Source: a phage
DNA length: 64,000 bases
Assembly (NCBI GenBank): GCA_033648345.1
Contig: GCA_033648345.1_4121.1
Strand: one strand, 5' to 3'
The translations under genes and the position numbers were made by a program. The number at the start of each line of letters is the position of its first letter. Position 1 is the first letter of the stretch. The notes under the pieces are model-generated. The model made no database searches. It was given only the letters and a program-made list of their open reading frames with translations, and was not told where the DNA came from. Of this stretch, positions 28-19,303 are shown in pieces.

Positions 28-279
28 ATGCGACAAAGAATGAACCACAAAATGTATTGTAAACTATTGCAGACACTGGCACAGAAACACTATGACACGG
101 TATCTGAAATATTACCCTATGATATCATGCGTTTACTTCACTGTGAGGCCGAGATGCTTGTACTGATGACAGGCACTGATAAAAAAGCAATTGCCAAATC
201 AATAGATATGTTCATCGAAGCACAATGTCAACACATTAGAACCGAGATATGGAGACGAGAGAATGATAACACTAAATGA
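28..279 (+). CDS. Family A small protein (degenerate motif MTGTDKK)
   Basis: Track ORF 83 aa; first member of tiled array. Confidence 0.55.
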   Translation: MRQRMNHKMYCKLLQTLAQKHYDTVSEILPYDIMRLLHCEAEMLVLMTGTDKKAIAKSIDMFIEAQCQHIRTEIWRRENDNTK

Positions 280-478
280 GTTTCAGTATCATTGGAGGTT
301 ACAAGCTATAAGAAGGAAAGTTGTTAGTATTTCTTTAGACAAGTCTATTGCACAAGAGGACAAATGTGTTATAATAGCTGAAATGAAGTTGGGTGTATTC
401 GTAGGAACAAACTATCAAAACATCTACACTGACGTATTGTTAAGTGCCTTACGTAACAAGGTGATATCAAAAGAATGA
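263..478 (+). CDS. Family A small protein
   Basis: 71 aa; FVGTNYQN motif; overlaps upstream stop. Confidence 0.65.
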   Translation: MITLNEFQYHWRLQAIRRKVVSISLDKSIAQEDKCVIIAEMKLGVFVGTNYQNIYTDVLLSALRNKVISKE

Positions 479-693
479 GAAAATTAATAGGTTACGAATA
501 TGTTAAGCTTCTGAAAACATGTGCCAACAGAAGAGTAAAGATTCAATCTGATAAGAGCATCCCTGCCAACCTAAAACATGCAATGGTAGCTGAACTCTAT
601 GCAGGGGCACTCATAGGAACAAACTATCAACAAATGTATATAGACATGTGGGTTGATGCATTAGTCAAGGTGATCCAAAGTAAATGCAAATGA
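475..693 (+). CDS. Family A small protein
   Basis: 72 aa; LIGTNYQQ motif; ATGA overlap with upstream gene. Confidence 0.65.
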   Translation: MRKLIGYEYVKLLKTCANRRVKIQSDKSIPANLKHAMVAELYAGALIGTNYQQMYIDMWVDALVKVIQSKCK

Positions 694-932
694 TTAATTT
701 AAGTAAATCTGAATATAAAGAACGCCAAGCAAAAATCTTACCTAAACTTAATGAAATCCATTTCGGTGAAGTAAACAAACACGAAAATAAGATGATTATG
801 AAGCGTGAGACAAAGCTATGTGCATTCTTAGGAACTAACTATCAGGAGTATTATGTAGAGGAATATATAATTACACTTAAGAAATACATTGGGAGTAAAC
901 TAAGTAAATGTACGAGAAATGCAAATGATTAA
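684..932 (+). CDS. Family A small protein
   Basis: 82 aa; FLGTNYQE; N-term MQMINLSKSEY. Confidence 0.65.
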   Translation: MQMINLSKSEYKERQAKILPKLNEIHFGEVNKHENKMIMKRETKLCAFLGTNYQEYYVEEYIITLKKYIGSKLSKCTRNAND

Positions 933-1137
933 TTTAAGTAAAGATGAATATTATGATCGTCTTGCAAAAACTTATCCAGCACGTAACGCCGTTTATAATA
1001 GTAACATTATTGAACGCTCAAAGAAGTTGATTGTAGTAAATGAGATTAAGATGCTTTCAGTCTTAGGAACAAACTATCAAGAGAATGCTGTACTGTTGTT
1101 AATTGATGCCCTCAAGAGAGAGATACAAAGTAAATGA
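919..1137 (+). CDS. Family A small protein
   Basis: 72 aa; VLGTNYQE; N-term MQMINLSKDEY. Confidence 0.65.
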   Translation: MQMINLSKDEYYDRLAKTYPARNAVYNSNIIERSKKLIVVNEIKMLSVLGTNYQENAVLLLIDALKREIQSK

Positions 1138-1358
1138 TTAATTTATCTTTCCATGAATATCAAAAACGTTTAAATGCATCCAGAGATATAAGGATTCAAA
1201 TATTCAATAACAAAAGATTGAAGCCTGATATCAGAAAAATCAAAATTATAGAAGCAGAGTTATGCAACTTTCTAGGGACCAACTATCAGGCAGGTAAGGT
1301 AAAAAACTATCTTAGAGAACTAATGAATAGTATTGAAAATAAATGCGAGGGTAATTAA
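1134..1358 (+). CDS. Family A small protein
   Basis: 74 aa; FLGTNYQA; ATGA overlap. Confidence 0.65.
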   Translation: MINLSFHEYQKRLNASRDIRIQIFNNKRLKPDIRKIKIIEAELCNFLGTNYQAGKVKNYLRELMNSIENKCEGN

Positions 1359-1359
1359 C

Positions 1360-1623
1360 ATGAAAATGATTAATTTAAGTAAAGATGAATATACCGAGCG
1401 TATGACAAAAATTACGCACAAACGTAATACAATCTATCACAACCCAGAAATTCAACACAGTAAGAAGATGATTATGATGCGTGAGTTAAAGATGGGTGTA
1501 TTCTTAGGAACAAACTATCAAGATACAGAAGTAAATCGCTTAATCGCGGAGTTACTACTGGAAATCAAAGGTAAGCTGTACTTTTATCAAATGACCCGTC
1601 CACTAAGGTGTACTGATCGATGA
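1360..1623 (+). CDS. Family A small protein
   Basis: Track ORF 1333..1623; in-frame ATG at 1360 (MKMINLSKDEY) directly follows upstream stop; FLGTNYQD. Confidence 0.6.
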   Translation: MKMINLSKDEYTERMTKITHKRNTIYHNPEIQHSKKMIMMRELKMGVFLGTNYQDTEVNRLIAELLLEIKGKLYFYQMTRPLRCTDR

Positions 1624-1862
1624 ATATTGTGAATAACATCAGAATAGCAGAAAGATTTGATAGAATTGGGGAAGCTCTGAGAAGATACGATAAAGAATAT
1701 GGTCATTTAAGCTTTTCTATAGAAAAGAGATATGAACTTGAAGCAGAGTTTAAAATGCAGTTCCTCTTAGGTACACAGTATCAAAACCAATATGTAGAAA
1801 AATGGATTTCACTTTTAATCCAGACAATTTACGTAAGGAACATTAAATGCAAAATGAAATGA
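1620..1862 (+). CDS. Family A small protein
   Basis: 80 aa; LLGTQYQN; ATGA overlap. Confidence 0.65.
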   Translation: MNIVNNIRIAERFDRIGEALRRYDKEYGHLSFSIEKRYELEAEFKMQFLLGTQYQNQYVEKWISLLIQTIYVRNIKCKMK

Positions 1863-2107
1863 TATACTTAACACATGATGAGTTAACAGAAAGACTAGAT
1901 AAATCCAAAAAACTTACAAATAAACTTCCTCACAACACAAACCAAACCCCAGCGGAAAGGAGTGCAGAAGTTTTATTCCAAACATTACCATACCTTCTTG
2001 GAACTGATAGGCAAGAGTATCACATTGAACGTATAATTAAATATCTCAAAATTACTATTAAGGAAAAAGTAAATGCAAATGCAAATGAAATACTTAACAG
2101 ACGATGA
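1847..2107 (+). CDS. Family A small protein
   Basis: 86 aa; LLGTDRQEY; near-duplicate of next gene. Confidence 0.65.
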   Translation: MQNEMIYLTHDELTERLDKSKKLTNKLPHNTNQTPAERSAEVLFQTLPYLLGTDRQEYHIERIIKYLKITIKEKVNANANEILNRR

Positions 2108-2330
2108 GTTAAAAGAACGATTAATTAAATCCAGAAAACTTACAAATCAACTTCCAATCGACACAAACAAGTCACATGCCGAAAGGAGTGCAGAAGTTTT
2201 ATACATTCAACTCCTGTACTTTCTTGGAACTGACAGACAAGAGTATTACATTGAAAGTATGCTTCGATATCTTAAATTCTCTATAAAGGAAAAGATACAT
2301 GCTCAAGAATTTAAAAATCCTAACAGTTAA
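2073..2330 (+). CDS. Family A small protein
   Basis: 85 aa; FLGTDRQEY; close paralog of 1847..2107. Confidence 0.65.
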   Translation: MQMQMKYLTDDELKERLIKSRKLTNQLPIDTNKSHAERSAEVLYIQLLYFLGTDRQEYYIESMLRYLKFSIKEKIHAQEFKNPNS

Positions 2331-2556
2331 TGAATATCATAAGATTGTAATGAAAACTAATAGTGCAATTTCTAAAAAATCAAACCCAAAGTACATACTG
2401 GAACACACATTCGAAGAACGCCAATTAGCTCTAGTTGAAGCAAAACTTCTTGCACTCCTAGGAACAAACTATCAGGAAGAATACATTAGAAAACTAATAT
2501 ACCTTTTAACTAAACACATCAGGAAAAGAAAAAAGCATGAAGCACTTGACAGATGA
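2299..2556 (+). CDS. Family A small protein
   Basis: 85 aa; LLGTNYQEE. Confidence 0.65.
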   Translation: MLKNLKILTVNEYHKIVMKTNSAISKKSNPKYILEHTFEERQLALVEAKLLALLGTNYQEEYIRKLIYLLTKHIRKRKKHEALDR

Positions 2557-2767
2557 TGAACATGGGCTTATAGTAATGGATGTAATCAACATCGAATACA
2601 AAAAGTTGATACGCTACCGTTGTTATGAAGATAAGCAACTCGTTCTAGCAGAACAGAAGTTGTTTCGACTCTTAAACACAAACTTCCAAGCACAATACGA
2701 AGAATCGTATTTGTACCTACTGTCGAGGAAAGCAAAAAGAGATTATGAAAATTTTAAGCCACAGTGA
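2537..2767 (+). CDS. Family A small protein
   Basis: 76 aa; LLNTNFQAQ variant. Confidence 0.6.
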   Translation: MKHLTDDEHGLIVMDVINIEYKKLIRYRCYEDKQLVLAEQKLFRLLNTNFQAQYEESYLYLLSRKAKRDYENFKPQ

Positions 2768-2960
2768 ACAAACAGAATTGTTAATCTTTAATACAAGTAA
2801 ATTCTTAAACATAACATTGTCTGATATAGATGATGATGAAAAAGAGTTACTTAGAGCAGATTTAAGAGTTCTTTTATATATTGGAACTAACTTCCAAGAG
2901 CAATTCGTTGAGGACTACATCGATGAACTTAAAGAATCTGTACTGAGAACATGCAAATGA
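2745..2960 (+). CDS. Family A small protein
   Basis: 71 aa; YIGTNFQEQ. Confidence 0.65.
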   Translation: MKILSHSEQTELLIFNTSKFLNITLSDIDDDEKELLRADLRVLLYIGTNFQEQFVEDYIDELKESVLRTCK

Positions 2961-3184
2961 AAATCCTTTCACCAAGTGAATACCACGAACTATTAAGTAG
3001 TTTAATTCTAAAATTGTATATAGCAAAGACCACAGATTTACCTGATGAAGAAAAAAATATTCTAATGAGTGAAATCTATGTTAATTCTACCCTAGGGACT
3101 AACTATCAAGAATGTAATATTAATGATTACATCAAAGAACTAAAAAGGTTTATCCAATGCAAATGCGAATCATTACCGAAGTAG
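2951..3184 (+). CDS. Family A small protein
   Basis: 77 aa; TLGTNYQEC; close paralog of next gene. Confidence 0.65.
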   Translation: MQMKILSPSEYHELLSSLILKLYIAKTTDLPDEEKNILMSEIYVNSTLGTNYQECNINDYIKELKRFIQCKCESLPK

Positions 3185-3408
3185 AATACCTAACAATCAT
3201 AAATGGACTGTTTTCGAAGTTATTTGCCATTAACACATCAAAACTTCCAGATACTGATAAAATTATTAAGTTAAATGAAATCTACGTTCAAGCTACTCTA
3301 GGAACAAACTATCAAGAAGCCAATGTGTATAATTACATTAATACACTCAAAAGGGTAATAAAATTAAAATGCACAGACAGCACAAACAGCCAATACACAA
3401 ACCCCTAG
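3157..3408 (+). CDS. Family A small protein
   Basis: 83 aa; TLGTNYQEA. Confidence 0.65.
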   Translation: MQMRIITEVEYLTIINGLFSKLFAINTSKLPDTDKIIKLNEIYVQATLGTNYQEANVYNYINTLKRVIKLKCTDSTNSQYTNP

Positions 3409-3608
3409 GAACAGCAGAATACATTGAACTAATGGCTGCAAACTTCTCATCCTTTAAGAAACTGATGCAAGAATCAAATAATGATTTAGAATATCATATC
3501 AAAAGTTCAGATTTAAGAATGCTTCTCACCCTAGACACAGATTCCCAAGAGCGATTTGTCAATGAGCATATTAGAGCACTTTTAAATGGCATCAGGGATA
3601 AACTATGA
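3369..3608 (+). CDS. Family A small protein (divergent)
   Basis: 79 aa; LTLDTDSQE variant of motif. Confidence 0.55.
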   Translation: MHRQHKQPIHKPLGTAEYIELMAANFSSFKKLMQESNNDLEYHIKSSDLRMLLTLDTDSQERFVNEHIRALLNGIRDKL

Positions 3609-3820
3609 AGGAAATATCAAATCAAGAGTACTTGGCACTATTCAGGAAGAATAATCACAAATATATGGCACTTGATTCAAGAACTGATATAAGTGAACTT
3701 GAAAAAAATCTTTTGCGTTCAGAGATGATAGTACTGACACTCTTAGGAACACAGCATCAAGAGAGAACTGTTAATTCACACATAGAGATTCTTATGCAGA
3801 TAGTACAGGAAAAGATATGA
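3605..3820 (+). CDS. Family A small protein
   Basis: 71 aa; LLGTQHQE; ATGA overlap. Confidence 0.65.
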   Translation: MKEISNQEYLALFRKNNHKYMALDSRTDISELEKNLLRSEMIVLTLLGTQHQERTVNSHIEILMQIVQEKI

Positions 3821-4038
3821 GAATCATAACACAACAAGATATGCTTAAGTTCGCAAGGGTTCATGCATCTGAATTTGATGCTATATTATCAAAAAGTTAC
3901 AACAACCCTTATACACAAGATGTACATTACAGTGAATTATGGATGTATATACTTTTAGGTACAGATCATCAAGAGCAAGCAGTACAGAAGTATTTGACAG
4001 CTTTACGTGATGCTACAGCTAATGGAGTACGTGTTTAA
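3817..4038 (+). CDS. Family A small protein
   Basis: 73 aa; LLGTDHQEQ; ATGA overlap. Confidence 0.65.
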   Translation: MRIITQQDMLKFARVHASEFDAILSKSYNNPYTQDVHYSELWMYILLGTDHQEQAVQKYLTALRDATANGVRV

Positions 4039-4039
4039 T

Positions 4040-4282
4040 ATGAAAGTACTGACAGAACTAGAAATGTATCATAGATTTAATAAGTACTATCATTTACTTA
4101 AGCCTATACAGAGGATTAAATGTCCATTTGAAGAGAAACAGGTTTTAATCTATGAGCACAAGTTCTTTGTATCATTAGGTACAGATCAACAAGAGTACTA
4201 TTTGACGTTGTACTTGATTACATTAATAGATTTCATTCACTATAAAACCACACAATCTAATAAAGAGAAATATGAAAACTAA
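4040..4282 (+). CDS. Family A small protein
   Basis: Track ORF 4007..4282; in-frame ATG at 4040 (MKVLTELEMY) follows upstream stop; SLGTDQQEY. Confidence 0.6.
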   Translation: MKVLTELEMYHRFNKYYHLLKPIQRIKCPFEEKQVLIYEHKFFVSLGTDQQEYYLTLYLITLIDFIHYKTTQSNKEKYEN

Positions 4283-4616
4283 TATACAACTCAAGGTATA
4301 TAAATCCTATGAACATATATATATCAAAAGTAGTCTATGTAGAGATGTAATGGACTACAAGGGTAAGCCATTCACAATTACGTATGATTCTTATATTAAT
4401 GATTTATATATATCATTTGTTAATTACGAAAATAAAATATACAAGCACGTTGATATTAAAGATTTAAGTACTTTATCACCAGAGGAATACTTTCAAGAAT
4501 CATTAGTATGGGATTTAGAATTTCCTATGCCATTAGTACATAAAATGATAGTACTAATGAAAGAAGCTAAACAGGAGCCTAATGGTGATTATGAAGAACA
4601 CATTATTGAGTACTGA
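4272..4616 (+). CDS. Family B protein (EEYFQESLVWD motif) embedded in family A array
   Basis: 114 aa; motif SPEEYFQESLVWD. Confidence 0.65.
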   Translation: MKTNIQLKVYKSYEHIYIKSSLCRDVMDYKGKPFTITYDSYINDLYISFVNYENKIYKHVDIKDLSTLSPEEYFQESLVWDLEFPMPLVHKMIVLMKEAKQEPNGDYEEHIIEY

Positions 4617-4619
4617 ACA

Positions 4620-4835
4620 ATGAAAAGATTATCATACAAAGATTACACCAATCTTATCAGGACTTTACAACCAGAAATTAGAAGAATTAATTCTCTTCCT
4701 ATATCTAATGAAGAATGTTCAGTACTGAAAGATGAGTTAATCTTAAAACACACAGTAGGAACAAACTATCAAGCTGATAGTGTTCGATATTTAATTTGGG
4801 GGTTGATGTGTCAAATAAAGTCCAGACAAGCTTGA
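4620..4835 (+). CDS. Family A small protein
   Basis: 71 aa; TVGTNYQAD. Confidence 0.65.
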   Translation: MKRLSYKDYTNLIRTLQPEIRRINSLPISNEECSVLKDELILKHTVGTNYQADSVRYLIWGLMCQIKSRQA

Positions 4836-4890
4836 CAGTACTCTTCATTACTGCTATAGTACACTAACGTTAATCATTAGGGTAAAAATT

Positions 4891-5136
4891 ATGTTAAATT
4901 TTTTAAATTTCCTTATCGTCTTGTGTATTGTTCTTGGGATTGCACCATTTGTATTGTATTTCATGGATTCAGATGAAATGCAGAAGATGAATTGCACAAA
5001 GACAGGACAGAGTAGAGTAGAGACGATTCTTATGCCTGTTACCGTTATTGTTAATAATATGCCCATTACAAACATGGTCCCTACCCTAACGACAACGTAC
5101 CAGTACTCTTGTACAGACGGAGAGAGGTGGAGATAA
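4891..5136 (+). CDS. Small membrane protein
   Basis: 81 aa; hydrophobic N-terminal helix LNFLIVLCIVLGIAPFVLYF; TAATG overlap with next gene. Confidence 0.5.
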   Translation: MLNFLNFLIVLCIVLGIAPFVLYFMDSDEMQKMNCTKTGQSRVETILMPVTVIVNNMPITNMVPTLTTTYQYSCTDGERWR

Positions 5137-5459
5137 TGCGTAAGTTCAATTGTATTGTACGTAAGAATTCATGTTACATTGTAGTAGCTGATTTTAATAC
5201 AGGTTCTGGGTTGAAGATATTTGAGTACAGAAAATGCAATAATTCTTTTCATTGGAAATTGGGTGCAAGAAAAGCAAAAACAATTTCAGTACCGAATTTA
5301 TGTTCTATCTCTGAAGAAGAAGAGTTTCAGTACTTGTTAGTACATGATGATTCTTTAGGATTTACATTCGAAGATATGAAGGAAGTACAAAAGCAGATGA
5401 TTGCACATTGTCATCTTCCAAAGAATTTTGTTCAACGCGTATGTGAATTCTACATATAA
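5136..5459 (+). CDS. Family B protein
   Basis: Track ORF 5109..5459; ATG at 5136 after RBS GAGAGGTGGAG; motif SEEEEFQYLLVHDD. Confidence 0.65.
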   Translation: MRKFNCIVRKNSCYIVVADFNTGSGLKIFEYRKCNNSFHWKLGARKAKTISVPNLCSISEEEEFQYLLVHDDSLGFTFEDMKEVQKQMIAHCHLPKNFVQRVCEFYI

Positions 5460-5468
5460 GAGAAGAAT

Positions 5469-5780
5469 ATGAAATTTAATATAGCAAAAACATCGAGTAT
5501 ATGTATTTTTGGTTATGCAGAAGAGTTAGGTGATATTGACATTCTTTTGTACAAAAAGGATGGTGTTATGCATTTCAAGTACCAGGATGAAGAGGCAGAC
5601 AATTATCTTTTACCTAATTTAGTACACATGCAGGAAGAGGAATTATTCCAGTACAGCCTTGTGTACGACATTGATATTTGCACGATGCCAGTATTAATTA
5701 GTATTCAAAAAGTGATGCTCGATATGTATGATAAGCTAATACAAGGTATGTCAGGGAGGATCATTGAAATTGATATATAA
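5469..5780 (+). CDS. Family B protein
   Basis: 103 aa; QEEELFQYSLVYDID. Confidence 0.65.
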   Translation: MKFNIAKTSSICIFGYAEELGDIDILLYKKDGVMHFKYQDEEADNYLLPNLVHMQEEELFQYSLVYDIDICTMPVLISIQKVMLDMYDKLIQGMSGRIIEIDI

Positions 5781-5808
5781 GAATTTACCTAAAGGAGATG
5801 CAATATAA

Positions 5809-6060
5809 ATGTACAAAAAAATAAACCGTTATTTGTATGCATCAAAGTACAGGGATTTTTGTTTACAAGGGGGAGATGACGATTTTGCTCTGAGGTTATC
5901 GGAATTTAATATGTTATTTTATCTTGGTACATCAGTACAAGAAGAAATGGTACAGAAATTTCTCAATCACCTTGGACGAAAAATTAATATACAAATTTTG
6001 ATGCTTAAGTTACAGAATGAGATAAATGAATATGAATCCAGAAATAGTTCAGGATCTTAA
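5809..6060 (+). CDS. Family A-like small protein
   Basis: 83 aa; YLGTSVQEE motif. Confidence 0.55.
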   Translation: MYKKINRYLYASKYRDFCLQGGDDDFALRLSEFNMLFYLGTSVQEEMVQKFLNHLGRKINIQILMLKLQNEINEYESRNSSGS

Positions 6061-6436
6061 AAAAGTAATATTTCTTTTGAATACAAGAAGCTCTTTATAT
6101 AAGGAGTTCAAGGATATTAAAACATCGTGTAATATAGATTTTTTTGAAACCATACATGCGGAGTTTCGTGATTTAATTGCAGATGCATTGTTTGAATTTT
6201 CCGAGAAATATCAAGGTACAGTCTTCGGTGTTAAGAATGTTCTTCGTCCAAGTACAGGTACAAGGAAGATTGAGTTATCACATTTTACAATTGGTAACAA
6301 CGATTTATTCAGTTATAACCCCAGTACATCTTTATATTTTATTCCTGTTTCAGACAAAAATCATCCTATTCATTACGGATGGATTATATCTTATACAATA
6401 AATGGGACGGAGTATCCTATTAAATGGCACGATTAG
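6026..6436 (+). CDS. Hypothetical protein
   Basis: 136 aa track ORF; start may be M1 or M3. Confidence 0.5.
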   Translation: MNMNPEIVQDLKKVIFLLNTRSSLYKEFKDIKTSCNIDFFETIHAEFRDLIADALFEFSEKYQGTVFGVKNVLRPSTGTRKIELSHFTIGNNDLFSYNPSTSLYFIPVSDKNHPIHYGWIISYTINGTEYPIKWHD

Positions 6437-6453
6437 GGTGTGAAGATTATAAT

Positions 6454-6576
6454 ATGAATATATTATTAAGAAATATTAATGCAGATTATTGTGTATGGGT
6501 TAAGAATAGAGATATGATGTATTATGATTTTTATTTAGATTGTGCCATTAAGCGTTTTTTAAGAGAAGAACATTAA
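6454..6576 (+). CDS. Small hypothetical protein (41 aa)
   Basis: Read by hand: fills gap, stop overlaps next start as TAATG; below track length cutoff. Confidence 0.3.
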   Translation: MNILLRNINADYCVWVKNRDMMYYDFYLDCAIKRFLREEH

Positions 6577-6758
6577 TGAAAACCGTTAATACAAAAGCAA
6601 TAAATGATTTAAATGATTCTTTATTAGTAAGTATCAAGATGTATTACAATATACATTTAAAGGGTGGTATAGATAATTACAATTATTATCTTTCATTAGT
6701 TACAATAGAACATTTAAATTATATAGATCAGTTATTACATCCAAATCCACCAAATTAA
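6576..6758 (+). CDS. Hypothetical protein
   Basis: 60 aa track ORF. Confidence 0.45.
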   Translation: MKTVNTKAINDLNDSLLVSIKMYYNIHLKGGIDNYNYYLSLVTIEHLNYIDQLLHPNPPN

Positions 6759-6769
6759 GGAATACCAAT

Positions 6770-7330
6770 ATGAATGATATTGAGTTATTGGTACATAAGA
6801 TTTGCACAATATCGTTTGTGCTGAACAATTCGAATACAGTACAGAGTTCCCTTTTAAGAATTAATAAAGTTGGGAGTAGTTTATATTTGGAAGTAAAAGC
6901 TGGTTTTGCAGGACAGTACAATGATAAAATCAAAGAAGAAGTTAAGGGAAGTGAAGATGCTTACATTGAGGTTTGTGCAACAGTTGGTTCAAATCCAATT
7001 TCAGTATCACCGTTAATGCGAAATGAAAATTCAGAATTTGATTCCAGTTTTGAAGGTTATTTGTGGTACAATTATGGTGATGATTATTTTATATATCAAA
7101 ATTCCAAAACGGATTATAGTGAAGAAGGTATAAAATTCATTGATCCTTACAATGAAGCAGAAGTATTTCAGACATCCCTAATATACAATACAAATCAAAT
7201 GAAGTATCTTATGTTGTTTAGTACAATGCATTTGAATCCATTGAAAGATAATTTAAAATTTTTCATTCGTTTAGAATTAGTTGATATTGCTTATGATCTT
7301 TTAATGCAAGGATATAGTTATGAAGTATAA
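6770..7330 (+). CDS. Family B protein
   Basis: 186 aa; NEAEVFQTSLIYNTN. Confidence 0.6.
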   Translation: MNDIELLVHKICTISFVLNNSNTVQSSLLRINKVGSSLYLEVKAGFAGQYNDKIKEEVKGSEDAYIEVCATVGSNPISVSPLMRNENSEFDSSFEGYLWYNYGDDYFIYQNSKTDYSEEGIKFIDPYNEAEVFQTSLIYNTNQMKYLMLFSTMHLNPLKDNLKFFIRLELVDIAYDLLMQGYSYEV

Positions 7331-7631
7331 AATGCTGTATACATTAACATTAATATATGTAGAATTAGAATCCGATTCAGATGCATGGAATTTGGTTAAA
7401 GAGGTCGATACCAATCAATGGTACATGGCAAATTTAGACGAACATGTTGTTACGGATTATTTTATAGATTTTAATACATTATCTGAAGAAGAATTTTTCC
7501 AAATGCAATTGGTGGTTGACATGTACGGACATGACATGGTAACATTAAGAAATATACAGAAAGTAGTTAATGAATTCCAAAGCAAGAAAGATTATGAGGT
7601 AGGAGCGTATTATGACATCGACGTACAGTGA
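7320..7631 (+). CDS. Family B protein
   Basis: 103 aa; SEEEFFQMQLVVD; close paralog of next gene. Confidence 0.65.
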   Translation: MKYKMLYTLTLIYVELESDSDAWNLVKEVDTNQWYMANLDEHVVTDYFIDFNTLSEEEFFQMQLVVDMYGHDMVTLRNIQKVVNEFQSKKDYEVGAYYDIDVQ

Positions 7632-7978
7632 AAGCAATGAGTACAATAGTTATGATATATAAAATGCTTTATACAGTATCGGGGATATATGTAGAATTAG
7701 AACCCGATTATCCAGATGGATGGAATTTTATTAAACGCTCCGAAAGAAATACATGGCACATGGCACATTTGGATAATGACGTAATATTAGACAATTTTGT
7801 GGATTTTAATACATTATCAGAAGAAGAATTCTTCCAAATGCAATGTGTGCTTGACACAAAAGGATTTGATGTGCTATTATTAAAGAATATACAAAAAGCT
7901 GTTAACGAATTAATATCCAATGACGAGTTAGGCAAAGTGAGGCTGTTCCATGATCTCGAAGTACCGTACCAGCAATGA
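7628..7978 (+). CDS. Family B protein
   Basis: 116 aa; SEEEFFQMQCVLD. Confidence 0.65.
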   Translation: MKAMSTIVMIYKMLYTVSGIYVELEPDYPDGWNFIKRSERNTWHMAHLDNDVILDNFVDFNTLSEEEFFQMQCVLDTKGFDVLLLKNIQKAVNELISNDELGKVRLFHDLEVPYQQ

Positions 7979-8519
7979 AATTCAGTACACCTACGCTAAT
8001 GCCATTCTTATGGGACAAAAGTTAGCTTGTATTGTTGCAGCCTTATATAATGTACAGAAAGCAGCACATAATAAAAAACCATATACAAGAATCATTAACG
8101 CATTCATGGGGTTTAAACCATCTGATTTTGATTCACATATTGCGTGCACAAGTTATTTTGACAAACGATTCAATACACCTGATACCCCAAATGCCCGTAG
8201 TGTTATTAGTCTTTTACAGTTTAATCCAACACCAGTTATATCAAAGAATGATTTGGATTACACATGGTACAATTCAAATCAAGATTCATTTTATTCTAAT
8301 GATCAATCGATTGAATATAATAAAATTAAATCAGAGGAAGCATTTTTTCAGGAATCATTATTTACACATGAACGTTCTTTGTTTTATAGTGTTATGTTGA
8401 GTACAGTATACAATAGTCCATTACACAAGAATAACAAAATTAATTTCAGTTTTTGTGCTTATGCGATTGATGGTGTTTATGAGTGCTTAATGGAGGTATT
8501 GAGTTATGAAGCTGAATAA
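7950..8519 (+). CDS. Family B protein
   Basis: 189 aa; SEEAFFQESLFTHE; RBS GTGAGG upstream of ATG. Confidence 0.6.
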   Translation: MISKYRTSNEIQYTYANAILMGQKLACIVAALYNVQKAAHNKKPYTRIINAFMGFKPSDFDSHIACTSYFDKRFNTPDTPNARSVISLLQFNPTPVISKNDLDYTWYNSNQDSFYSNDQSIEYNKIKSEEAFFQESLFTHERSLFYSVMLSTVYNSPLHKNNKINFSFCAYAIDGVYECLMEVLSYEAE

Positions 8520-8847
8520 TACATTTGATATTAAGAAGTTAAGAGAATGGTTTTATAGTATTGAAATTGAAGCCATTCCTTATCATACATATGAACAAAG
8601 TGATTTACAAAGTATTGATATCAGAGAGTTGTACAAATATTATCAGAGTGCATTAGAGATGCATAAGTTATTTTTGAGTACAAATTTCATTCTAAATTAC
8701 AATTTTGAGGAATTTAATAATTATAATTTAGTACAGAAATATGTAGTAGCAAAGTACATGTACAATCAAGGTATCAAAGGTTGCCTCGAATTCAATACCG
8801 TTCTTATTTTAGTTGAGGTAATTTTATGCACCGCATGTCTGATTTAG
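8506..8847 (+). CDS. Hypothetical protein
   Basis: 113 aa track ORF in tiling. Confidence 0.5.
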   Translation: MKLNNTFDIKKLREWFYSIEIEAIPYHTYEQSDLQSIDIRELYKYYQSALEMHKLFLSTNFILNYNFEEFNNYNLVQKYVVAKYMYNQGIKGCLEFNTVLILVEVILCTACLI

Positions 8848-9323
8848 AGTTCAGTTTAGATGCAGCCTTTAAATTTGTTCACAAAATAGAAACAATATAT
8901 CGTACATTATGTGCAATAACATCAGTATCAAAAGAGTTTGATGTTGGTGAAAGGTATCAGGTGTGGAATAATTCATTTTATAATAAAGAACATTCTGCGA
9001 CGGCATTTTATATTTTAGCATTTAATCCCAGCAATTGTTACCCTGAGAAGCATGAACGTTATCCAAATGACGACATGTGGTTTGAGTACAAAGAAGATGC
9101 TGATATGTCGTCAATTGTAGTTCCTGATGATTTTAATGCACAAGATTTAACAGAAGAGTGGTGGTTCCAGCAGAATTTAGTACATGATGATATTGATTTA
9201 TTTTTCTATATTGCATTTAAAATGCTTTATCACAACAATATAGTTAAAGAAAGTTTATCGTTTTCATGTCTATATATTGATGATTTGTACAATGAAATTC
9301 AAATAAACATGCCTGTATCGTAA
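8826..9323 (+). CDS. Family B protein
   Basis: 165 aa; TEEWWFQQNLVHDD. Confidence 0.6.
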   Translation: MHRMSDLEFSLDAAFKFVHKIETIYRTLCAITSVSKEFDVGERYQVWNNSFYNKEHSATAFYILAFNPSNCYPEKHERYPNDDMWFEYKEDADMSSIVVPDDFNAQDLTEEWWFQQNLVHDDIDLFFYIAFKMLYHNNIVKESLSFSCLYIDDLYNEIQINMPVS

Positions 9324-9341
9324 GATATGGGCTTTTTTTGT

Positions 9342-9370
9342 TTGACACGAGTACAAATGCATGGTACAAT
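9342..9370 (+). promoter_or_regulatory. Sigma70-like promoter TTGACA-N17-TACAAT
   Basis: Perfect -35 hexamer and near-consensus -10 in the intergenic gap; lies upstream of RBS TAAGGAG and the ATG at 9397. Confidence 0.55.
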
Positions 9371-9396
9371 GTGTAATCATTTTTAAGGAGATACCT

Positions 9397-9972
9397 ATGG
9401 AAAATTTTAAAATACCAGATGATTTCAATTCAGTACAAGAGATTGTACACAAGGTTCATTATATTTTTAATGAATTAATTATTGCCAATTCATCCGGTAT
9501 GCAAATTGAGTTAAAGGATATTGATAGAGAAGAAGTTTTTTTGGGTTCCCCAAATTCAATCATTCCTTTTTATGGACAAGATCGTTTATGGTTCATGAGA
9601 GATACCCCAATTGACAAATACAAAATACAAACAAAATCAGAGTTTTATTCTATTTTTGAATATCTTAATATTACATTACAAACACAAGATATAAATGCAA
9701 TGAGTGCCATGAGTGCAGAGGATTATTTTCAGTACAGTACAGTGTATAGTCCAGAAGAAATCTTTGTTGTTATGCTCGTTGCAAAATTGAGTACAGTTGA
9801 TTTTGGGACGTACCCAAATAAATCATTCAAGATTATTATTCCTGCATTCGTCGATCTTTATGATTTCATTGTGCACAAGAAAGAAAGTACAGTGTACGAT
9901 ATGTATCGTTCAAATATCAGTTTATTTGCATCAAGTGCAGTAAATGCAGTGATTACAGGGGAATTAAAATGA
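9397..9972 (+). CDS. Family B protein
   Basis: Track ORF 9361..9972 starts inside the promoter spacer; in-frame ATG at 9397 with RBS TAAGGAG; motif SAEDYFQYSTVYSPEE. Confidence 0.6.
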   Translation: MENFKIPDDFNSVQEIVHKVHYIFNELIIANSSGMQIELKDIDREEVFLGSPNSIIPFYGQDRLWFMRDTPIDKYKIQTKSEFYSIFEYLNITLQTQDINAMSAMSAEDYFQYSTVYSPEEIFVVMLVAKLSTVDFGTYPNKSFKIIIPAFVDLYDFIVHKKESTVYDMYRSNISLFASSAVNAVITGELK

Positions 9973-10577
9973 ACATAGACCAATTAATGAAGTACAGTAC
10001 AAATACAATTCCAGTGCTAAGTAAAGCATTAGATGCATTCAATGCTAAGTACCCTGAAGGTTCAGAGTTAAATATTCCTTTTACCACAGAAGGAATTGTT
10101 GATACGTACATTGTAAACATCAGTAGTACAGGTATTGTTTTGAAGCAAAAGTACGGCGAAAGTGAATATTATGGATTGAAGCTGGATAATATTTCAGGAG
10201 AGAAGACACCTTATGAGTTTTGGGTTCCGAATAACATTGAGTCATGGAAAACAAATATTAATAAGAGAGACGAAAGAAATTTACCTCTTGTACAAAATAA
10301 TGAAAAAAGAATTGACGTATTTTATTATTACAGTACAGCCCAGTTTCCAGAAGAGATTTATTTAAATTCAGAGGTGCATGAAGATATTGAATCATTTTTC
10401 TTTCAGTTATCATTGGTACAGGATATCATGCCTGTGCAAATGTTCAGGGATGAAATAAATTTAGCGAAAGAGATTTCGGATATGTTACCTGAATTTAGTG
10501 TTCTTTATGGTAGTAGAGCTTTACCTGAAAATGTATACAAAGAATTTATTTCCATTGTTAAAGGGTTGAATATATAA
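9969..10577 (+). CDS. Family B protein
   Basis: 202 aa; ESFFFQLSLVQD. Confidence 0.6.
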   Translation: MNIDQLMKYSTNTIPVLSKALDAFNAKYPEGSELNIPFTTEGIVDTYIVNISSTGIVLKQKYGESEYYGLKLDNISGEKTPYEFWVPNNIESWKTNINKRDERNLPLVQNNEKRIDVFYYYSTAQFPEEIYLNSEVHEDIESFFFQLSLVQDIMPVQMFRDEINLAKEISDMLPEFSVLYGSRALPENVYKEFISIVKGLNI

Positions 10578-10578
10578 T

Positions 10579-10773
10579 ATGACCGCCTATGATATCAAAC
10601 AAAGGCATACGAAGTTTGATTTGTTCACATACCAATTCCACAATGATATAGTGAATTTTAACATCAATGCGTCATTGCATCCTACATCACAAGATGATTT
10701 TGACAACAGAGTGCTTAACATCGTGGTGCTTTTGTGTTATAATCATTTCAGTGAATATTTTAACACAAGATAA
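10579..10773 (+). CDS. Hypothetical protein
   Basis: 64 aa track ORF. Confidence 0.45.
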   Translation: MTAYDIKQRHTKFDLFTYQFHNDIVNFNINASLHPTSQDDFDNRVLNIVVLLCYNHFSEYFNTR

Positions 10774-10786
10774 GGTTGAGGCACAC

Positions 10787-11305
10787 ATGTATCAGGCCAA
10801 GTACAATACATCATATGCATTTGCACACAACATTTTGAAGATCATCAAAGCGTTAGAGGGTGGATTGCTTAGTCATAAGTACACCAAAGTAGGTGACAAT
10901 TGGTTCAGAAATGATGATGAGTTCAGAAGTCATAAGATTGTTTACAGCAATAATTACAGTGCCAATTACCTTCAGGATGTTGCTATGTGCTTCGAATACG
11001 TGTTACAGTTCAGGGGTTCCATCAGTCCAGAGCTAAGAGAACACATGTACATTCGATACCTACCAATGCTTAAGGATGAGAAAACAATATTCAATTCAGT
11101 ACACCACAGAGTACGAGAGAGAACATTCAGGGATATTTTAGAAGATGAAGCTGCATATTTCCAGCAATCATTGATTGATGCTCCTGATGTGTTACAGATG
11201 CAGAATTTGTATAATGTATTAGATGCGAACATCGATACGGATATCTTTTTTTCCTTAAGTGATTATGAAACATTTTTGGAAGATTTAAAGGAAATAGGAT
11301 TATGA
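10787..11305 (+). CDS. Family B protein
   Basis: Track ORF 10667..11305; in-frame ATG at 10787 after RBS AAGGTTGAGG; EDEAAYFQQSLIDAPD. Confidence 0.6.
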   Translation: MYQAKYNTSYAFAHNILKIIKALEGGLLSHKYTKVGDNWFRNDDEFRSHKIVYSNNYSANYLQDVAMCFEYVLQFRGSISPELREHMYIRYLPMLKDEKTIFNSVHHRVRERTFRDILEDEAAYFQQSLIDAPDVLQMQNLYNVLDANIDTDIFFSLSDYETFLEDLKEIGL

Positions 11306-11646
11306 GTAGATTTTCAGTTTATATAGTAAACGTCAGTAAAGATGGTAGTTTAATTGAATTTGATGTAGTTGATGACAATGATAATTCATATTGTATTAAG
11401 GTACAGGACAATGATGTACAGTTCAGTACAAGGACAAATTTTGAAAATCCAGTCCAAGTTCCGAATTTCATAGAAGATGAAGCTGCACGATTCCAATACG
11501 AAACGGCCTTTGATAATTTAGCGATGCATATTATTATGCAACAGAGTTTAGTTCAATTGCTTCAGGTATTCAGACAAAATATATATGTACACGAAGTGTC
11601 GATTAATGGCATTCAAAGTTCCGTTTTGTTCAGTACAAATATGTAA
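11302..11646 (+). CDS. Family B protein
   Basis: 114 aa; EDEAARFQYETAFD. Confidence 0.6.
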   Translation: MSRFSVYIVNVSKDGSLIEFDVVDDNDNSYCIKVQDNDVQFSTRTNFENPVQVPNFIEDEAARFQYETAFDNLAMHIIMQQSLVQLLQVFRQNIYVHEVSINGIQSSVLFSTNM

Positions 11647-11656
11647 GGAAAGTACA

Positions 11657-12211
11657 ATGAGTTCAATGAGTTTATTAGATACATTAGAAAAAGACAGAAG
11701 TGCCATTAAGAGATTAAAAAATCTTGTCCAGAGCATTGCGAACAACGCTGAGAAGTTCAGTGACAATCTTAGTATAGGTGATATAACCAGTACAGGAATA
11801 AAATCCCTGAAGTCAGATTTATTAATTCATAAGGAAGATAAATTATTATTTGTATTGAGTTCAGATTTAATGGTTGCAAGTAATGGTTTCAATTCGATAT
11901 CAACACAAGATGGTAGCACAGGATTATATCTATCACAGGGTGTCCAGACGAACGAACAAAAGTGTTTTAGTTCAGGAGTACAGAATCCCTTTAAGTTCAG
12001 TACAGAACAAGCTACAGAGCTTTTAGATGCTTCAGAAGAGATGTTATTTCAGTACAAAACGGTTCATACAGATTTTGAATTACGATGCATGTACGCTGTT
12101 AAGCATTATGTTCAGGAGTTCGAGAATTTAAGTTATCTTTTAGTTCGAACGAATACAAAGAACATTGGTGCATTAGAAGATTACATTTCAAAAGTTGTTA
12201 AAGGGTGCTAA
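11657..12211 (+). CDS. Family B protein
   Basis: Track ORF 11585..12211; in-frame ATG at 11657 (MSSMSLLD); SEEMLFQYKTVHTD. Confidence 0.6.
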   Translation: MSSMSLLDTLEKDRSAIKRLKNLVQSIANNAEKFSDNLSIGDITSTGIKSLKSDLLIHKEDKLLFVLSSDLMVASNGFNSISTQDGSTGLYLSQGVQTNEQKCFSSGVQNPFKFSTEQATELLDASEEMLFQYKTVHTDFELRCMYAVKHYVQEFENLSYLLVRTNTKNIGALEDYISKVVKGC

Positions 12212-12220
12212 AGGGTGCTG

Positions 12221-12382
12221 ATGAAAGAGTTATTTGAAGAACAGTTCGATACATATGTGGATAATATTCTTTATTCCAGTCGTGCTAGTCAACGAGGAAA
12301 TCGTGCTTACAACATAGATTACCTATTAACGGTGCTGAGTTCACAGTACACCTACGCTGTGCAGAGGACATATTATGGATAA
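12221..12382 (+). CDS. Small hypothetical protein (53 aa)
   Basis: Read by hand; stop overlaps next ATG (ATGGATAA); below track cutoff. Confidence 0.3.
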   Translation: MKELFEEQFDTYVDNILYSSRASQRGNRAYNIDYLLTVLSSQYTYAVQRTYYG

Positions 12383-12578
12383 TTTTAGAGATGTTGCTAA
12401 GGAGAAGTTCAAGTGCAGTTTAGATTACGGTTTAAATGATTTTCTTACATGCACAATGTACAGGAATGATGATTATGAGCAATCCGTAATTTCGTTGCAC
12501 AGATATTTCGAAATAATTTACGCAAGATATCTTAGAAGGTTAGATGGGATAGGGGATTGGAATTATGATTACGTTTGA
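12375..12578 (+). CDS. Hypothetical protein
   Basis: 67 aa track ORF. Confidence 0.45.
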   Translation: MDNFRDVAKEKFKCSLDYGLNDFLTCTMYRNDDYEQSVISLHRYFEIIYARYLRRLDGIGDWNYDYV

Positions 12579-12789
12579 AGAGCCGGAAGTAGTATATTGC
12601 TATAGTGTGAAAGGTTTTGAATACATGATGGATTCGATTTTGAAGGATACATATTTGGTTCAGATTGCAGTTACAGATAATACAGATAATGCATTACAGC
12701 GAGTATTGAATATATACGAGAGGACGAGTCGAAGGCTTTGTGCATTGAAAAGGATTGAAGAAATCAAGCTTTCTAGGCTGAATAAATAG
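12565..12789 (+). CDS. Hypothetical protein
   Basis: 74 aa track ORF. Confidence 0.45.
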   Translation: MITFEEPEVVYCYSVKGFEYMMDSILKDTYLVQIAVTDNTDNALQRVLNIYERTSRRLCALKRIEEIKLSRLNK

Positions 12790-12986
12790 AGACGTTTCGT
12801 TTTCACAGGCCGCAGGGGGGGGTCAAAAAAAATTTTCGCTGAAAAACATGTTAAGGTATATGTTTAATATAAAGTTTTAAAATGTGTTCACAGAGTACAG
12901 TTCATGTTTCCTGAAACAAAAAATACCCCGCCGCGAACGTTCTCCTTATATTGGAGTTTACCTTATTAATTACAGTTGAGATTAAG

Positions 12987-13364
12987 ATGGAAATAAAATA
13001 TAATGATTTTTGTGCAAGGACATGGATGTACACTGGTGAGTTAGTTACGCACTCTAACTTATACAAGGGTGATTTAAACTACGCAAGGGACAAGATTTTA
13101 AAGTACTGGAATTCTGACTTTTATTTGATGGATTTTAGTACTGGGTTTAGGGGTAAAGCAACCGAGATGTTGGACTATACAGTACTTGATGATGCGGCAC
13201 TGTTTCAGGAGGCATTAGTATTTGATAAGAAGTACATCTGTACATTAGAAGAGATGATTGAAATCCAGCGTAGAATTAAATGTATTCACAGAGAATGTAT
13301 AGACATCTGGTGCAGTACTGGTGAGGCTGATTTCTGGAAATTTTTTAATCTAGGGGAAGAGTGA
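12987..13364 (+). CDS. Family B protein (DKKY subfamily)
   Basis: Track ORF 12951 begins with TTG; in-frame ATG at 12987; motif DDAALFQEALVFDKKYICTLEE. Confidence 0.6.
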   Translation: MEIKYNDFCARTWMYTGELVTHSNLYKGDLNYARDKILKYWNSDFYLMDFSTGFRGKATEMLDYTVLDDAALFQEALVFDKKYICTLEEMIEIQRRIKCIHRECIDIWCSTGEADFWKFFNLGEE

Positions 13365-13720
13365 TGGAATTTGATTTTGTAATATCAGTACATTCTTTTA
13401 AGAACAGTTTTCAGTACTTTTGTAATTTAAACAAAGGTGATTTAATGCACAGTGCAAATGAGTATATTCATTACACTCAGGGTAAATTTACATTCATTGA
13501 TTACAGTTCATTACAGTATCCGCATCAGGATATGCCGGATTATACAGTACTTGATGAGGCTGAACTATTTCAGGAGTCATTAGTATTTGATAAGAAGTAC
13601 TTGTGTACATTTGAAGAAGTAATTGCAATACAAAATGAAATGAAAGAGTATGACTCTTTGAATAAAGGCAATGTCAGTATTAATCAAGAATACAAATTCA
13701 ATATAGGAATTCCAGAATGA
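13361..13720 (+). CDS. Family B protein (DKKY subfamily)
   Basis: 119 aa; DEAELFQESLVFDKKYLCTFEE. Confidence 0.65.
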   Translation: MMEFDFVISVHSFKNSFQYFCNLNKGDLMHSANEYIHYTQGKFTFIDYSSLQYPHQDMPDYTVLDEAELFQESLVFDKKYLCTFEEVIAIQNEMKEYDSLNKGNVSINQEYKFNIGIPE

Positions 13721-14061
13721 CATTTGATTTTTCTATGTTTATACCTAAGATTAGTACTTCACTGGAAGTGTATTGCAATCTTAACAAAGGTGATTATGAA
13801 CACAAAATGGATCAGTACATTAAATTTAATGGTTCTTACTTTAGCTTCATTGATTATCAGGCCAAAGGAACAGTTGTAGAAAATATGAAAGACTATGCAA
13901 CTGTACATGGTGAGGCTGAAATATTTCAAGAGTCATTAATATTTGACAAGAAGTACTTGTGTACACTAGAGGAAGTTATTGAACTCCAACAGAAGATGAA
14001 AGAATATAGAAGAATCTGCATAGAGACTGATTCCAAAGATAGGTATTGTTTTAAGCTATGA
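13717..14061 (+). CDS. Family B protein (DKKY subfamily)
   Basis: 114 aa; GEAEIFQESLIFDKKYLCTLEE. Confidence 0.65.
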   Translation: MTFDFSMFIPKISTSLEVYCNLNKGDYEHKMDQYIKFNGSYFSFIDYQAKGTVVENMKDYATVHGEAEIFQESLIFDKKYLCTLEEVIELQQKMKEYRRICIETDSKDRYCFKL

Positions 14062-14243
14062 ATAAAAAAGAACAAATGGAATCATTCATGAATACAATAC
14101 TTCGACGATTCGTAATTGATATTAGACATAACAACAGCATTAGGAATGATATGTACTTCGGTACATATGATATTAGTGAATTGTATATAGCTAATATTCA
14201 CATGGTTTACCGAGATTATATCAAGACACAACACAGGAGTTGA
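14058..14243 (+). CDS. Hypothetical protein
   Basis: 61 aa track ORF, ATGA overlap. Confidence 0.45.
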   Translation: MNKKEQMESFMNTILRRFVIDIRHNNSIRNDMYFGTYDISELYIANIHMVYRDYIKTQHRS

Positions 14244-14244
14244 T

Positions 14245-15152: not shown

Positions 15153-15154
15153 TA

Positions 15155-16064: not shown

Positions 16065-16375
16065 AATTCTTATACAGTATTCAGTACATTCCAGGTACAA
16101 TTAGTTTAATGTATTTCTTCGATCATGATAATTTCCAGCAACTTGCCGTTAGAAGATGTAATGAATCTTTAATGATTGAATATCTTCACGATTGTGATTA
16201 TATTCCCGACTTTCTTGAATGCGATTACAGTGATGATCATGAAACATTTCTTTTTCAGGAATCACTTATATGGGATAAGAGAATTAATTTTCATGCCTTA
16301 ATTGAGATACAAAAACAAGTGAAGTACTACTGGGATTACTTAATTACCCAAAAATATATAGAGATTGAAATATAA
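16061..16375 (+). CDS. Family B protein
   Basis: 104 aa; HETFLFQESLIWDKRIN. Confidence 0.6.
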   Translation: MKFLYSIQYIPGTISLMYFFDHDNFQQLAVRRCNESLMIEYLHDCDYIPDFLECDYSDDHETFLFQESLIWDKRINFHALIEIQKQVKYYWDYLITQKYIEIEI

Positions 16376-19298: not shown

Positions 19299-19303
19299 AT
19301 GCC

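Follow-up and report, generated by a model that had tools for sequence, protein, structure and literature searches.

Tandem families and blocks of small genes near genome termini are known from several viruses. In large phages with long terminal repeats, namely, SPO1 (genes 37-60) and T5 (the pre-early genes), as well as in Twort-like phages (the 'Tre' genes), host RNA polymerase transcribes blocks of host-takeover genes from strong sigma70-type promoters. In African swine fever virus (ASFV; the MGF110, MGF360 and MGF505 families) and in poxviruses (the terminal families and 'gene accordions'), tandem paralogs near the termini modulate host range and immunity. In jumbo phages, which have been proposed for therapy, more than 80% of the genes have no assigned function. 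Here, an array of tandem paralogs, termed family A, found at the start of a 64,000-nucleotide stretch of phage DNA (the window; NCBI GenBank assembly GCA_033648345.1, contig GCA_033648345.1_4121.1), was considered. To our knowledge, this array (~30 copies, 6 kb) is among the largest tandem paralog families known in a phage. Judging by position and analogy, the array may be an operon expressed early, with products that have diversified to interact with the host in its cytoplasm, a reading that is favoured here with moderate confidence.

In phage T4, the small early counter-defence gene tifA was shown to be amplified in tandem under selection (Srikant, Guegler and Laub, 2022; PMC9391042). For a phage of the same genus as that from which the window comes, Hua et al. 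(2017; PMC5646251) offered a one-sentence remark on tandem duplication in which the genes were not named, and the remark was repeated in the description of phage phAPEC6 (PMC7247149). Because family A is the biggest paralog cluster in this region, as revealed by BLAST clustering of the open reading frames (ORFs) of the window, the remark probably refers to the array addressed here, although Hua et al. spoke of 'very similar' genes, whereas the mean identity of the paralogs in the window is ~30%. Otherwise, the searched literature yielded no prior work that analysed the family or addressed where it lies, its fold or its dynamics, and in every genome record the members are listed as hypothetical proteins. 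The phrog_4148 record, which describes the same sequence cluster, carries no function, structure or genomic analysis, nor does it address array layout, repeat position or copy-number dynamics.

Members of the array

The first 6 kb of the window were matched by 36 phage records, all corresponding to Asteriusvirus-type jumbo myoviruses of Escherichia coli or Salmonella and including PBECO4, 121Q, phAPEC6 and fEgEco12 (top identity 95.5%). Judging by these matches, the window is DNA of an Asteriusvirus jumbo coliphage of the PBECO4/121Q group. Its G+C content is ~33%, and the + strand carries essentially all of the long ORFs.

A run of 21 consecutive abutting ORFs on the + strand spans positions 28-4835. 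A profile hidden Markov model (HMM) of the family, built from 19 core genes, was used to score each of the 562 stop-to-stop ORFs in the window. The 19 training genes scored at E-values of 5e-22 to 3e-30, with noise beginning at E ~0.9. Three dispersed genes that were independent of the training set, beginning at positions 5809, 17771 and 17967, were also recovered (E = 6e-7, 1e-5 and 5e-11, respectively), in this search as 5809-6057, 17765-17986 and 17952-18158, such that the three extra members listed outside the run in the initial annotation are true ones. The same annotation had considered all 21 ORFs of the run to be members. The 21 ORFs are indeed present, but as assessed by profile, the run is composed of 19 clear members, one divergent member (28-279) and one foreign ORF (4272-4616). 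The individual genes, all on the + strand, are as follows.

1-43, + strand: cut-off member, last 13 codons and stop codon (41-43); its tail, RAKKEWNKQCDKE and stop, matches the end of fEgEco12 array gene 9 (QRAKKEWNKKCDTD and stop), which has FIGTNYQ
28-279, + strand: divergent member, 83 aa; HMM E = 0.17, hhalign probability 78%
263-478, + strand: member, 71 aa; HMM E = 8.7e-25, phrog_4148 E = 8e-18
475-693, + strand: member, 72 aa; HMM E = 2.7e-27; junction of -4, ATGA overlap with the preceding gene
684-932, + strand: member, 82 aa; HMM E = 2.8e-30, phrog_4148 E = 4e-25; the alternative start at 690 would give an ATGA overlap
919-1137, + strand: member, 72 aa, the protein modelled; HMM E = 9.6e-27
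1134-1358, + strand: member, 74 aa, ATGA overlap; HMM E = 1.3e-26
1360-1623, + strand: member, 87 aa from ATG 1360 (mechanical start TTG 1333), GAGG 9 nt upstream of the ATG; HMM E = 2.1e-29
1620-1862, + strand: member, 80 aa, ATGA overlap; HMM E = 7.4e-24
1847-2107, + strand: member, 86 aa, nearest paralog 2073-2330; HMM E = 3.1e-25
2073-2330, + strand: member, 85 aa, with its own 97% orthologue in PBECO4; HMM E = 4.5e-26
2299-2556, + strand: member, 85 aa; HMM E = 1.2e-23
2537-2767, + strand: member, 76 aa, LLNTNFQ, promoter-like site in its first codons; HMM E = 5.4e-22
2745-2960, + strand: member, 71 aa, acidic (pI 4.5); HMM E = 2.5e-24
2951-3184, + strand: member, 77 aa; HMM E = 8.6e-29
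3157-3408, + strand: member, 83 aa; HMM E = 1.8e-26
3369-3608, + strand: member, 79 aa, LDTDSQ; HMM E = 9.4e-23
3605-3820, + strand: member, 71 aa, ATGA overlap; HMM E = 1e-24
3817-4038, + strand: member, 73 aa, ATGA overlap; HMM E = 5.5e-24
4040-4282, + strand: member, 80 aa from ATG 4040 (mechanical start GTG 4007); HMM E = 5e-25
4272-4616, + strand: non-member, 114 aa, interrupts the array; HMM E = 8.7, phrog_13866 E = 1.4e-7
4620-4835, + strand: member, 71 aa, last of the run; HMM E = 2.2e-24
5809-6060, + strand: dispersed divergent member, 83 aa, LGTSVQE; HMM E = 5.7e-7
17771-17989, + strand: dispersed divergent member, 72 aa, VGSNKQD; HMM E = 1e-5
17967-18161, + strand: dispersed member, 64 aa, LGTQYQE; HMM E = 5e-11

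Window bases 2-43 thus encode the C-terminal tail of a further member, so that the window edge cuts the array. In the ORF at 28-279, MTGTDKK replaces LGTNYQE, a two-residue deletion having removed the Y-Q pair. When compared to the family profile using hhalign, the alignment was collinear (E = 1.8e-5), and orthologues sharing 65-95% identity hold the same position in seven genomes. An alignment-guided AlphaFold2 (AF2) model, a test that is partly circular, was all-helical, with a predicted local distance difference test (pLDDT) score of 86.6. This ORF is, therefore, probably a divergent family member. The ORF at 4272-4616, which presented no match to phrog_4148, joined a separate BLAST cluster of 10 ORFs spread over 4272-22302 and, given this and its match to phrog_13866, was rejected as a member of family A. 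As to the N-terminus, the members follow the general pattern M-[KI]-x-L-[TS]-x-x-E-Y, with the supposedly conserved sequence M(Q)MINLSK being present in four genes only.

Genomic position and predicted transcription units

In complete relatives, nine further members are found upstream of the portion included in the window, which thus contains the distal two thirds of a full array of ~28 genes and ~6 kb. In fEgEco12, a direct terminal repeat of 20,993 bp was defined using PhageTerm and restriction digests (PMC13070987); the repeat ends at position 20,993, with the first array gene starting at position 21,091. In vB_Ec-M-J, the annotated repeat extends to position 21,525, with the array beginning at position 21,624. 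Because the repeat ends ~100 nt before the first gene in both of these genomes with mapped termini (98-99 nt), the array is, as read from these sequences, the transcription unit with which the unique DNA begins beyond the left terminal repeat. While the genes within the fEgEco12 repeat are separated by gaps of ~80-100 nt, many of which contain a perfect (12/12) TTGACA-16/17-TATAAT promoter sequence, the array is without such spacers.

Within the 12500-21000 region of the fEgEco12 repeat, eight perfect sigma70 consensus promoters were noted at positions 12,781-19,238. The repeat also contains three copies (13489-13516, 16758-16785 and 19510-19537) of an identical 28-nt hairpin, AAAGGGATTGACTCCGGTCAGTCCCTTT, which is followed by GCTATTATAT and in which TTGACT overlaps a promoter-like TTGACT-17-TATTAT sequence. 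This hairpin may serve as a terminator/promoter cassette or else be regulatory.

Examination of the 20 junctions between the ORFs of the run revealed that no gap exceeds +3 nt. When the first start codons are considered, 19 of the junctions correspond to overlaps of 4-40 nt and one to a 3-nt spacer. Overlaps of 4 nt (ATGA) are certain at five junctions, namely, at positions 475, 1134, 1620, 3605 and 3817, with positions 690, 1859 and 2957 also representing ATGA overlaps should the second Met of 'MQM' serve as start. The ATG codons at positions 1360 and 4040, which are consistent with the rest of the family and hence preferred over TTG 1333 and GTG 4007, each lie 1 nt past the preceding stop codon. 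As such, the tight packing of similarly oriented genes described in the initial annotation is borne out at every junction, and is compatible with translational coupling.

The absence of terminators from the array, also claimed earlier, was upheld in that a sequence scan detected no convincing + strand terminator inside the array. The parallel claim that no promoter is found inside holds only in part. Although the array is otherwise nearly without internal promoters, one conserved promoter-like site was identified, with a second such site lying just past the array.

2546-2574, + strand: putative promoter, sigma70-like TTGACA-17-TATAGT (11/12 match), in the first codons of gene 2537-2767
4832-4860, + strand: putative promoter, sigma70-like TTGACA-17-TATAGT with extended TG, just past the array at the start of the next unit

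The site at 2546-2574 is retained at the orthologous gene in 8/8 genomes, including A4 and ph0011, where this part of the gene is 68-69% identical. The site at 4832-4860 is conserved in six of the seven relatives scanned, PBECO4 being the exception, and a leader promoter-like site (TTGACT-16-TATTAT or TTGACA-17-TATGAT) appears 30-60 nt upstream of the first array gene in 7/7 relatives. Overall, promoter-like matches were not enriched relative to shuffled sequence. The array thus presents genes on the same strand, overlapping or abutting stop and start codons and no internal terminator, as expected of an operon, and, given the conserved promoter-like site at 2546-2574, is better described as one or two nested polycistronic units, as predicted from sequence. 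By analogy, it was proposed for the related phage CBB that short ORFs with RpoD-like promoters make up an early region (PMC5259590), while RNA-seq of phage PA5oct revealed the terminal-repeat genes to be early (PMC7318152).

Further along the window, downstream of the small-gene arrays, the following genes are found.

43700-44842, + strand: T4-type RNA ligase 1 (Rnl1)
45665-46597, + strand: polynucleotide kinase/phosphatase (PNKP), which with Rnl1 forms a tRNA-repair pair
52869-54287, + strand: ATP-dependent DNA ligase

The presence of Rnl1, PNKP and DNA ligase genes downstream fits with this region of a T4-related phage being early or accessory. Two further paralog families are interleaved with family A. 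The first includes 10 members of 103-137 aa (4272-22302), among them the 114-aa ORF at 4272-4616, while the second includes six members of 146-164 aa (14245-22784). The larger ORFs that were tested against Pfam presented no match.

The protein family, its fold and its remodelling

To the extent that family A was described earlier as a distinct expanded paralog family of unknown function, the database searches concur. All nine members scanned matched phrog_4148 (function unknown) over nearly the entire length of that profile (E = 1e-8 to 4e-25), with weaker matches to phrog_28039, meaning that, as a sequence cluster, the family has been catalogued before. No real match for members was found in Pfam, NCBIfam or PADLOC, and comparison of the family profile with the sequences of the PDB yielded nothing real. 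A match of one of the 22 members to Pfam DUF7237 (14.3 bits, E = 0.05) fell below the 27-bit gathering cut-off and was dismissed. A word-seeded search of 5.8 billion proteins returned 95 matches, all of 44-101 aa, with those named coming from E. coli, Escherichia phages or Salmonella phages. Likewise, when 1.84 billion cluster representatives were searched exhaustively using HMMER, only 94 clusters were returned at E <= 1e-3, with a weak tail that included proteins of Klebsiella phages RaK2 and K64-1; those clusters that were looked up (1-10) or named all came either from E. coli/Asteriusvirus phages or from Rak2-like phages of Klebsiella. Scanning IMG/VR with 15-mers revealed only scattered single chance matches.

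In RaK2, ~11 weak members are grouped by twos or threes within a 26-kb stretch. The family is hence older than the Asteriusvirus/Alcyoneusvirus split and was expanded in Asteriusvirus. One of the RaK2 members, the 121-aa ORF362, follows a 785-nt gap at the point where spaced genes give way to packed ones.

Family members are proteins of 8-10 kDa that are predicted to be soluble, since the maximal Kyte-Doolittle value over a 19-residue window is at most 1.1, such that no membrane-like segment is discerned. An AF2 model of the protein encoded by 919-1137, generated using the 22 window paralogs as alignment, was obtained with a pLDDT of 97.1 and a predicted template modelling score of 0.82. The model includes helices at residues 8-17, 19-27, 33-47 and 54-71, together with a bridge from residue 4 to the Thr of the G-T turn. 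The scaffold is thus confidently predicted to be a four-helix fold with a conserved hydrophobic core, in which an N-terminal strand is paired with the invariant G-T-x-x-Q turn, the other positions being variable. Assignment to the ribbon-helix-helix DNA-binding proteins, which present a strand-helix-turn-helix topology of ~45 aa and were considered given the N-terminal strand and a G-[ST] turn preceding the final helix, was not supported, nor was there similarity in fold or sequence to a solved anti-defence or anti-CRISPR inhibitor.

The family A domain is also found in longer proteins. P0168, a 269-aa protein of phages UB (MH383160, 185239-186045) and EC.P1 (PQ657772, 338002-338808), contains an N-terminal family A domain (phrog_4148 E = 1e-10) and a C-terminal domain of ~170 aa sharing 40% identity with the stand-alone RaK2 ORF380. 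Two RaK2 members (9170-9535 and 12814-13161 of the RaK2 portion) bear paralogous C-terminal extensions of ~55 aa that present weak similarity (E ~0.02-0.03) to window ORFs at 13361-14061. Comparison of the P0168 C-terminal domain and the RaK2 extensions with window ORFs, including the 103-137-aa family, gave nothing significant, and with the best E-value being ~0.02, no link is established between family A and the neighbouring array (family B).

The array genes are intact. In all of the 11 genomes and contigs considered, HMM matches span almost the entire profile. Concatenated dN/dS (omega) values between the window and A4, UE-S1, ph0011 and PBECO4 are 0.38, 0.39, 0.36 and 0.39, respectively, with neighbouring non-family genes yielding values of 0.30-0.36. 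As gauged by these ratios, the array genes are coding and under moderate purifying selection, constrained to the same degree as the surrounding accessory region. The possibility that most copies are frameshifted pseudogenes or junk is accordingly disfavoured by the full-length ORFs and the omega values of 0.36-0.39, consistent with their initial treatment as genuine genes.

Across the same genomes and contigs, the array includes 19 members in A4, 24 in UE-S1, 25-26 in three metagenomic contigs and in Ecwhy_1, 26 in ph0011, and 27-28 in fEgEco12, WPEC3, PBECO4 and phAPEC6, with array size thus ranging from 19 to 28. Intact members with strong HMM scores were also noted in unannotated gaps of the phAPEC6 record (4741-4989, 5339-5850 and 6011-6265 of the portion considered) and in several gaps of PBECO4, meaning that the numbers of family genes published in these two records are too low. 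In A4, a 272-aa ORF (6055-6873 of the portion considered) is inserted past the end of the terminal-repeat region, ahead of the first array gene. Its match to phrog_681 (endonuclease; E = 3e-10) points to a mobile nuclease gene bordering the array. A 366-nt ORF occupies the equivalent position in PBECO4 (6493-6858 of the portion considered).

Adjacent genes are more alike than are non-adjacent genes (33.1% vs. 28.2% identity; permutation p ~0.0009), and for this reason an origin of the family by tandem duplication is supported by the sequences. That such duplication is ongoing, as was initially proposed, is poorly borne out. The nearest pairs, 1847/2073 and 2951/3157, share 60% and 45% amino acid identity, respectively, with the former sharing 76% nucleotide identity. 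Moreover, the genes at 1847 and 2073 each have a separate orthologue in PBECO4, such that this duplication is older than the divergence of these phages.

Change of other sorts was instead seen. UE-S1 contains a chimera of the N-terminal part of gene 17 (92%) and the C-terminal part of gene 18 (84%), and A4 contains a chimera of the N-terminal part of gene 4 and the C-terminal part of gene 5. In PBECO4, phAPEC6 and UE-S1, the gene order is 11, 13, 14, 12, 15. For most paralogs, orthologues correspond one-to-one between phages and follow the same order, and orthologue identity varies from 0.4 to 0.99 within a single phage pair. The points at which identity changes are concentrated near gene boundaries rather than within genes, as expected of cassette exchange filtered by selection for intact genes. 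Judging from these comparisons, ongoing change in the array is by deletion, chimera formation and cassette replacement.

Proposed function and comparison with known systems

In the favoured reading, early transcription by host RNA polymerase would yield one or two polycistronic mRNAs from the array, with the leader promoter and the conserved 2546 site as candidate start points, and translation would be coupled from each gene to the next. The products would comprise a cocktail of cytoplasmic binders, each offering a different surface, that would take over or disarm variable host factors in host takeover or counter-defence. The family would have grown by tandem duplication from a few dispersed copies, as in RaK2-type phages, and the array would now be reshaped by unequal recombination and cassette exchange.

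Several points weigh against this reading. Because no member has a known function or a fold relative, the four-helix model having found no specific fold match in the PDB or BFVD, a host-interaction role draws on position and analogy. In the searched literature, neither transcriptomics nor functional studies of the early genes of Asteriusvirus or RaK2 were found that would supply transcript and protein data. Omega is no higher than in neighbouring genes, and the dN/dS comparisons gave no overall signal of positive selection, so that an arms race would have left no special signature. Finally, most members are basic, which would also fit with nucleic-acid binding, and the conserved polar residues T49, Q52, E8, E40 and K70, maintained at ~30% paralog identity, could reflect a shared partner or ligand instead of independent targets.

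The first of these two properties speaks for the best-surviving alternative, one that is nonetheless unlikely. Here, the products would be small basic nucleic-acid-binding or regulatory proteins that, at an early stage of infection, coat or regulate the DNA or RNA of the phage or of the host, with the paralogs differing in sequence or structure preference. In agreement, the median pI is 8.9 (range 4.5-9.9), with 14 of 22 members having a pI of at least 8.7, and the products are small helical proteins encoded in a region of early type.

The second property speaks for an adaptor family, somewhat less probable again, in which a patch formed by G-T-x-x-Q together with E8, E40 and K70 would dock all of the paralogs on one host or phage partner, with the variable surfaces selecting substrates. 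When conservation was computed over 189 members from seven genomes, Q52 and L63 were invariant, T49 was conserved in 99%, G48 in 91% and E8, E40 and K70 in ~75%, with the remaining conserved columns being hydrophobic. Charged residues are thus kept across paralogs of ~30% identity, and the domain is found fused, both in P0168 with its RaK2 ORF380-like domain and in the two RaK2 members with ~55-aa extensions. On the other hand, the model places the motif at the start of helix 4, in the turn paired with the N-terminal strand, making a purely structural role at least as likely, while E40 would lie on the hydrophobic face of helix 3, and no partner is known.

It is improbable that the array is dispensable DNA, with duplicates retained to fill a large capsid, as in the jumbo-genome ratchet idea, and with most copies having no present function. 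Although copy numbers of 19-28 could be so explained, the full-length ORFs and invariant residues in 11 genomes and contigs, an omega of 0.36-0.39 rather than ~1 and the one-to-one orthologues retained in the same order for most paralogs all argue to the contrary.

Very improbable is the notion that a repeated DNA or RNA string, rather than the protein, is functional, serving as a binding, processing or recombination site. The codons of the GTNYQ motif are fixed at synonymous sites, with AAC encoding Asn in 15/15 instances (27/83 elsewhere in the same genes), GGA encoding Gly in 12/17 (3/17 elsewhere) and TAT encoding Tyr in 11/11 (44/79 elsewhere). As a result, a string of 15-20 nt, T(T/C)AGGAACAAACTATCAAGA, returns every 215-235 nt between positions 380 and 4772 of the window, the nucleotide string at the motif codons of array members being GGAACAAACTATCAA. 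Nonetheless, the protein-level signals (fold, omega < 1 and intact ORFs) are strong and RaK2 members do not share this choice of motif codons. As a recombination anchor, the string was rejected, since only 3 of 29 breakpoints lie within 30 nt of the motif, where ~8 would be expected, the transitions instead falling near gene boundaries.

Least probable of all is that these small, abundant paralogs encoded near a genome end are virion-internal or injected proteins, since none of the phAPEC6 array products (gp467c-gp489c) is among the 62 virion proteins detected in that phage by mass spectrometry, which included one of only 4.7 kDa (PMC7247149).

Returning to the early operon of host-interaction proteins, a more far-reaching version can be put forward tentatively. 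Here, the array would be the phage equivalent of the ASFV and poxvirus terminal families, supplying from the onset of infection a ready stock of ~30 versions of a single new four-helix scaffold, each of which would neutralise a different allele or type of host defence or host factor, such that array content would set host range, which would evolve through unequal recombination within the array. Were the products host-interaction or counter-defence factors, the array would offer a compact and tractable model for the diversification of an accessory repertoire, a source of new small protein inhibitors and a marker of host range in Asteriusvirus isolates, whereas a dispensable array would support the 'capsid-filling' view of jumbo genome growth. 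In either case, the scaffold represents a confidently predicted fold without a solved relative.

Of the systems introduced above, the SPO1, T5 and Twort-like blocks resemble the array in gathering numerous short ORFans at the genome end that bears the repeat. In those blocks, however, unrelated genes with individual promoters are located within the repeat, as in the Asteriusvirus repeat itself, whereas the array lies outside the repeat, consists of one family and has almost no internal promoters. Assignment of the array as a host-takeover module of the SPO1/T5 type inside a terminal redundancy was, therefore, rejected, although the neighbouring repeat genes fit such a description.

The array does correspond to a terminal multigene family, with tandem paralogs adjoining a repeat and with copy number and content that vary (19-28 members, chimeras and changes in order). 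The ASFV and poxvirus families concern a different domain of hosts, share no kinship in sequence or fold with family A and are not packed into operons as are the array genes, for which a role in host range is only proposed, by analogy. What is shared is that the array adjoins a terminal repeat, varies in copy number from isolate to isolate and encodes divergent small proteins.

The nearest mechanistic phage precedent is the amplification of T4 tifA. No homology between family A and TifA was detectable in the exhaustive search. Moreover, tifA is present in identical copies that arose recently and were selected for dosage, whereas those of family A are old, ~30% identical and individually conserved across phages. 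Still, in both instances a small early accessory gene of a T4-like myovirus has been multiplied in tandem by recombination, in a setting where accessory regions are traded against genome size.

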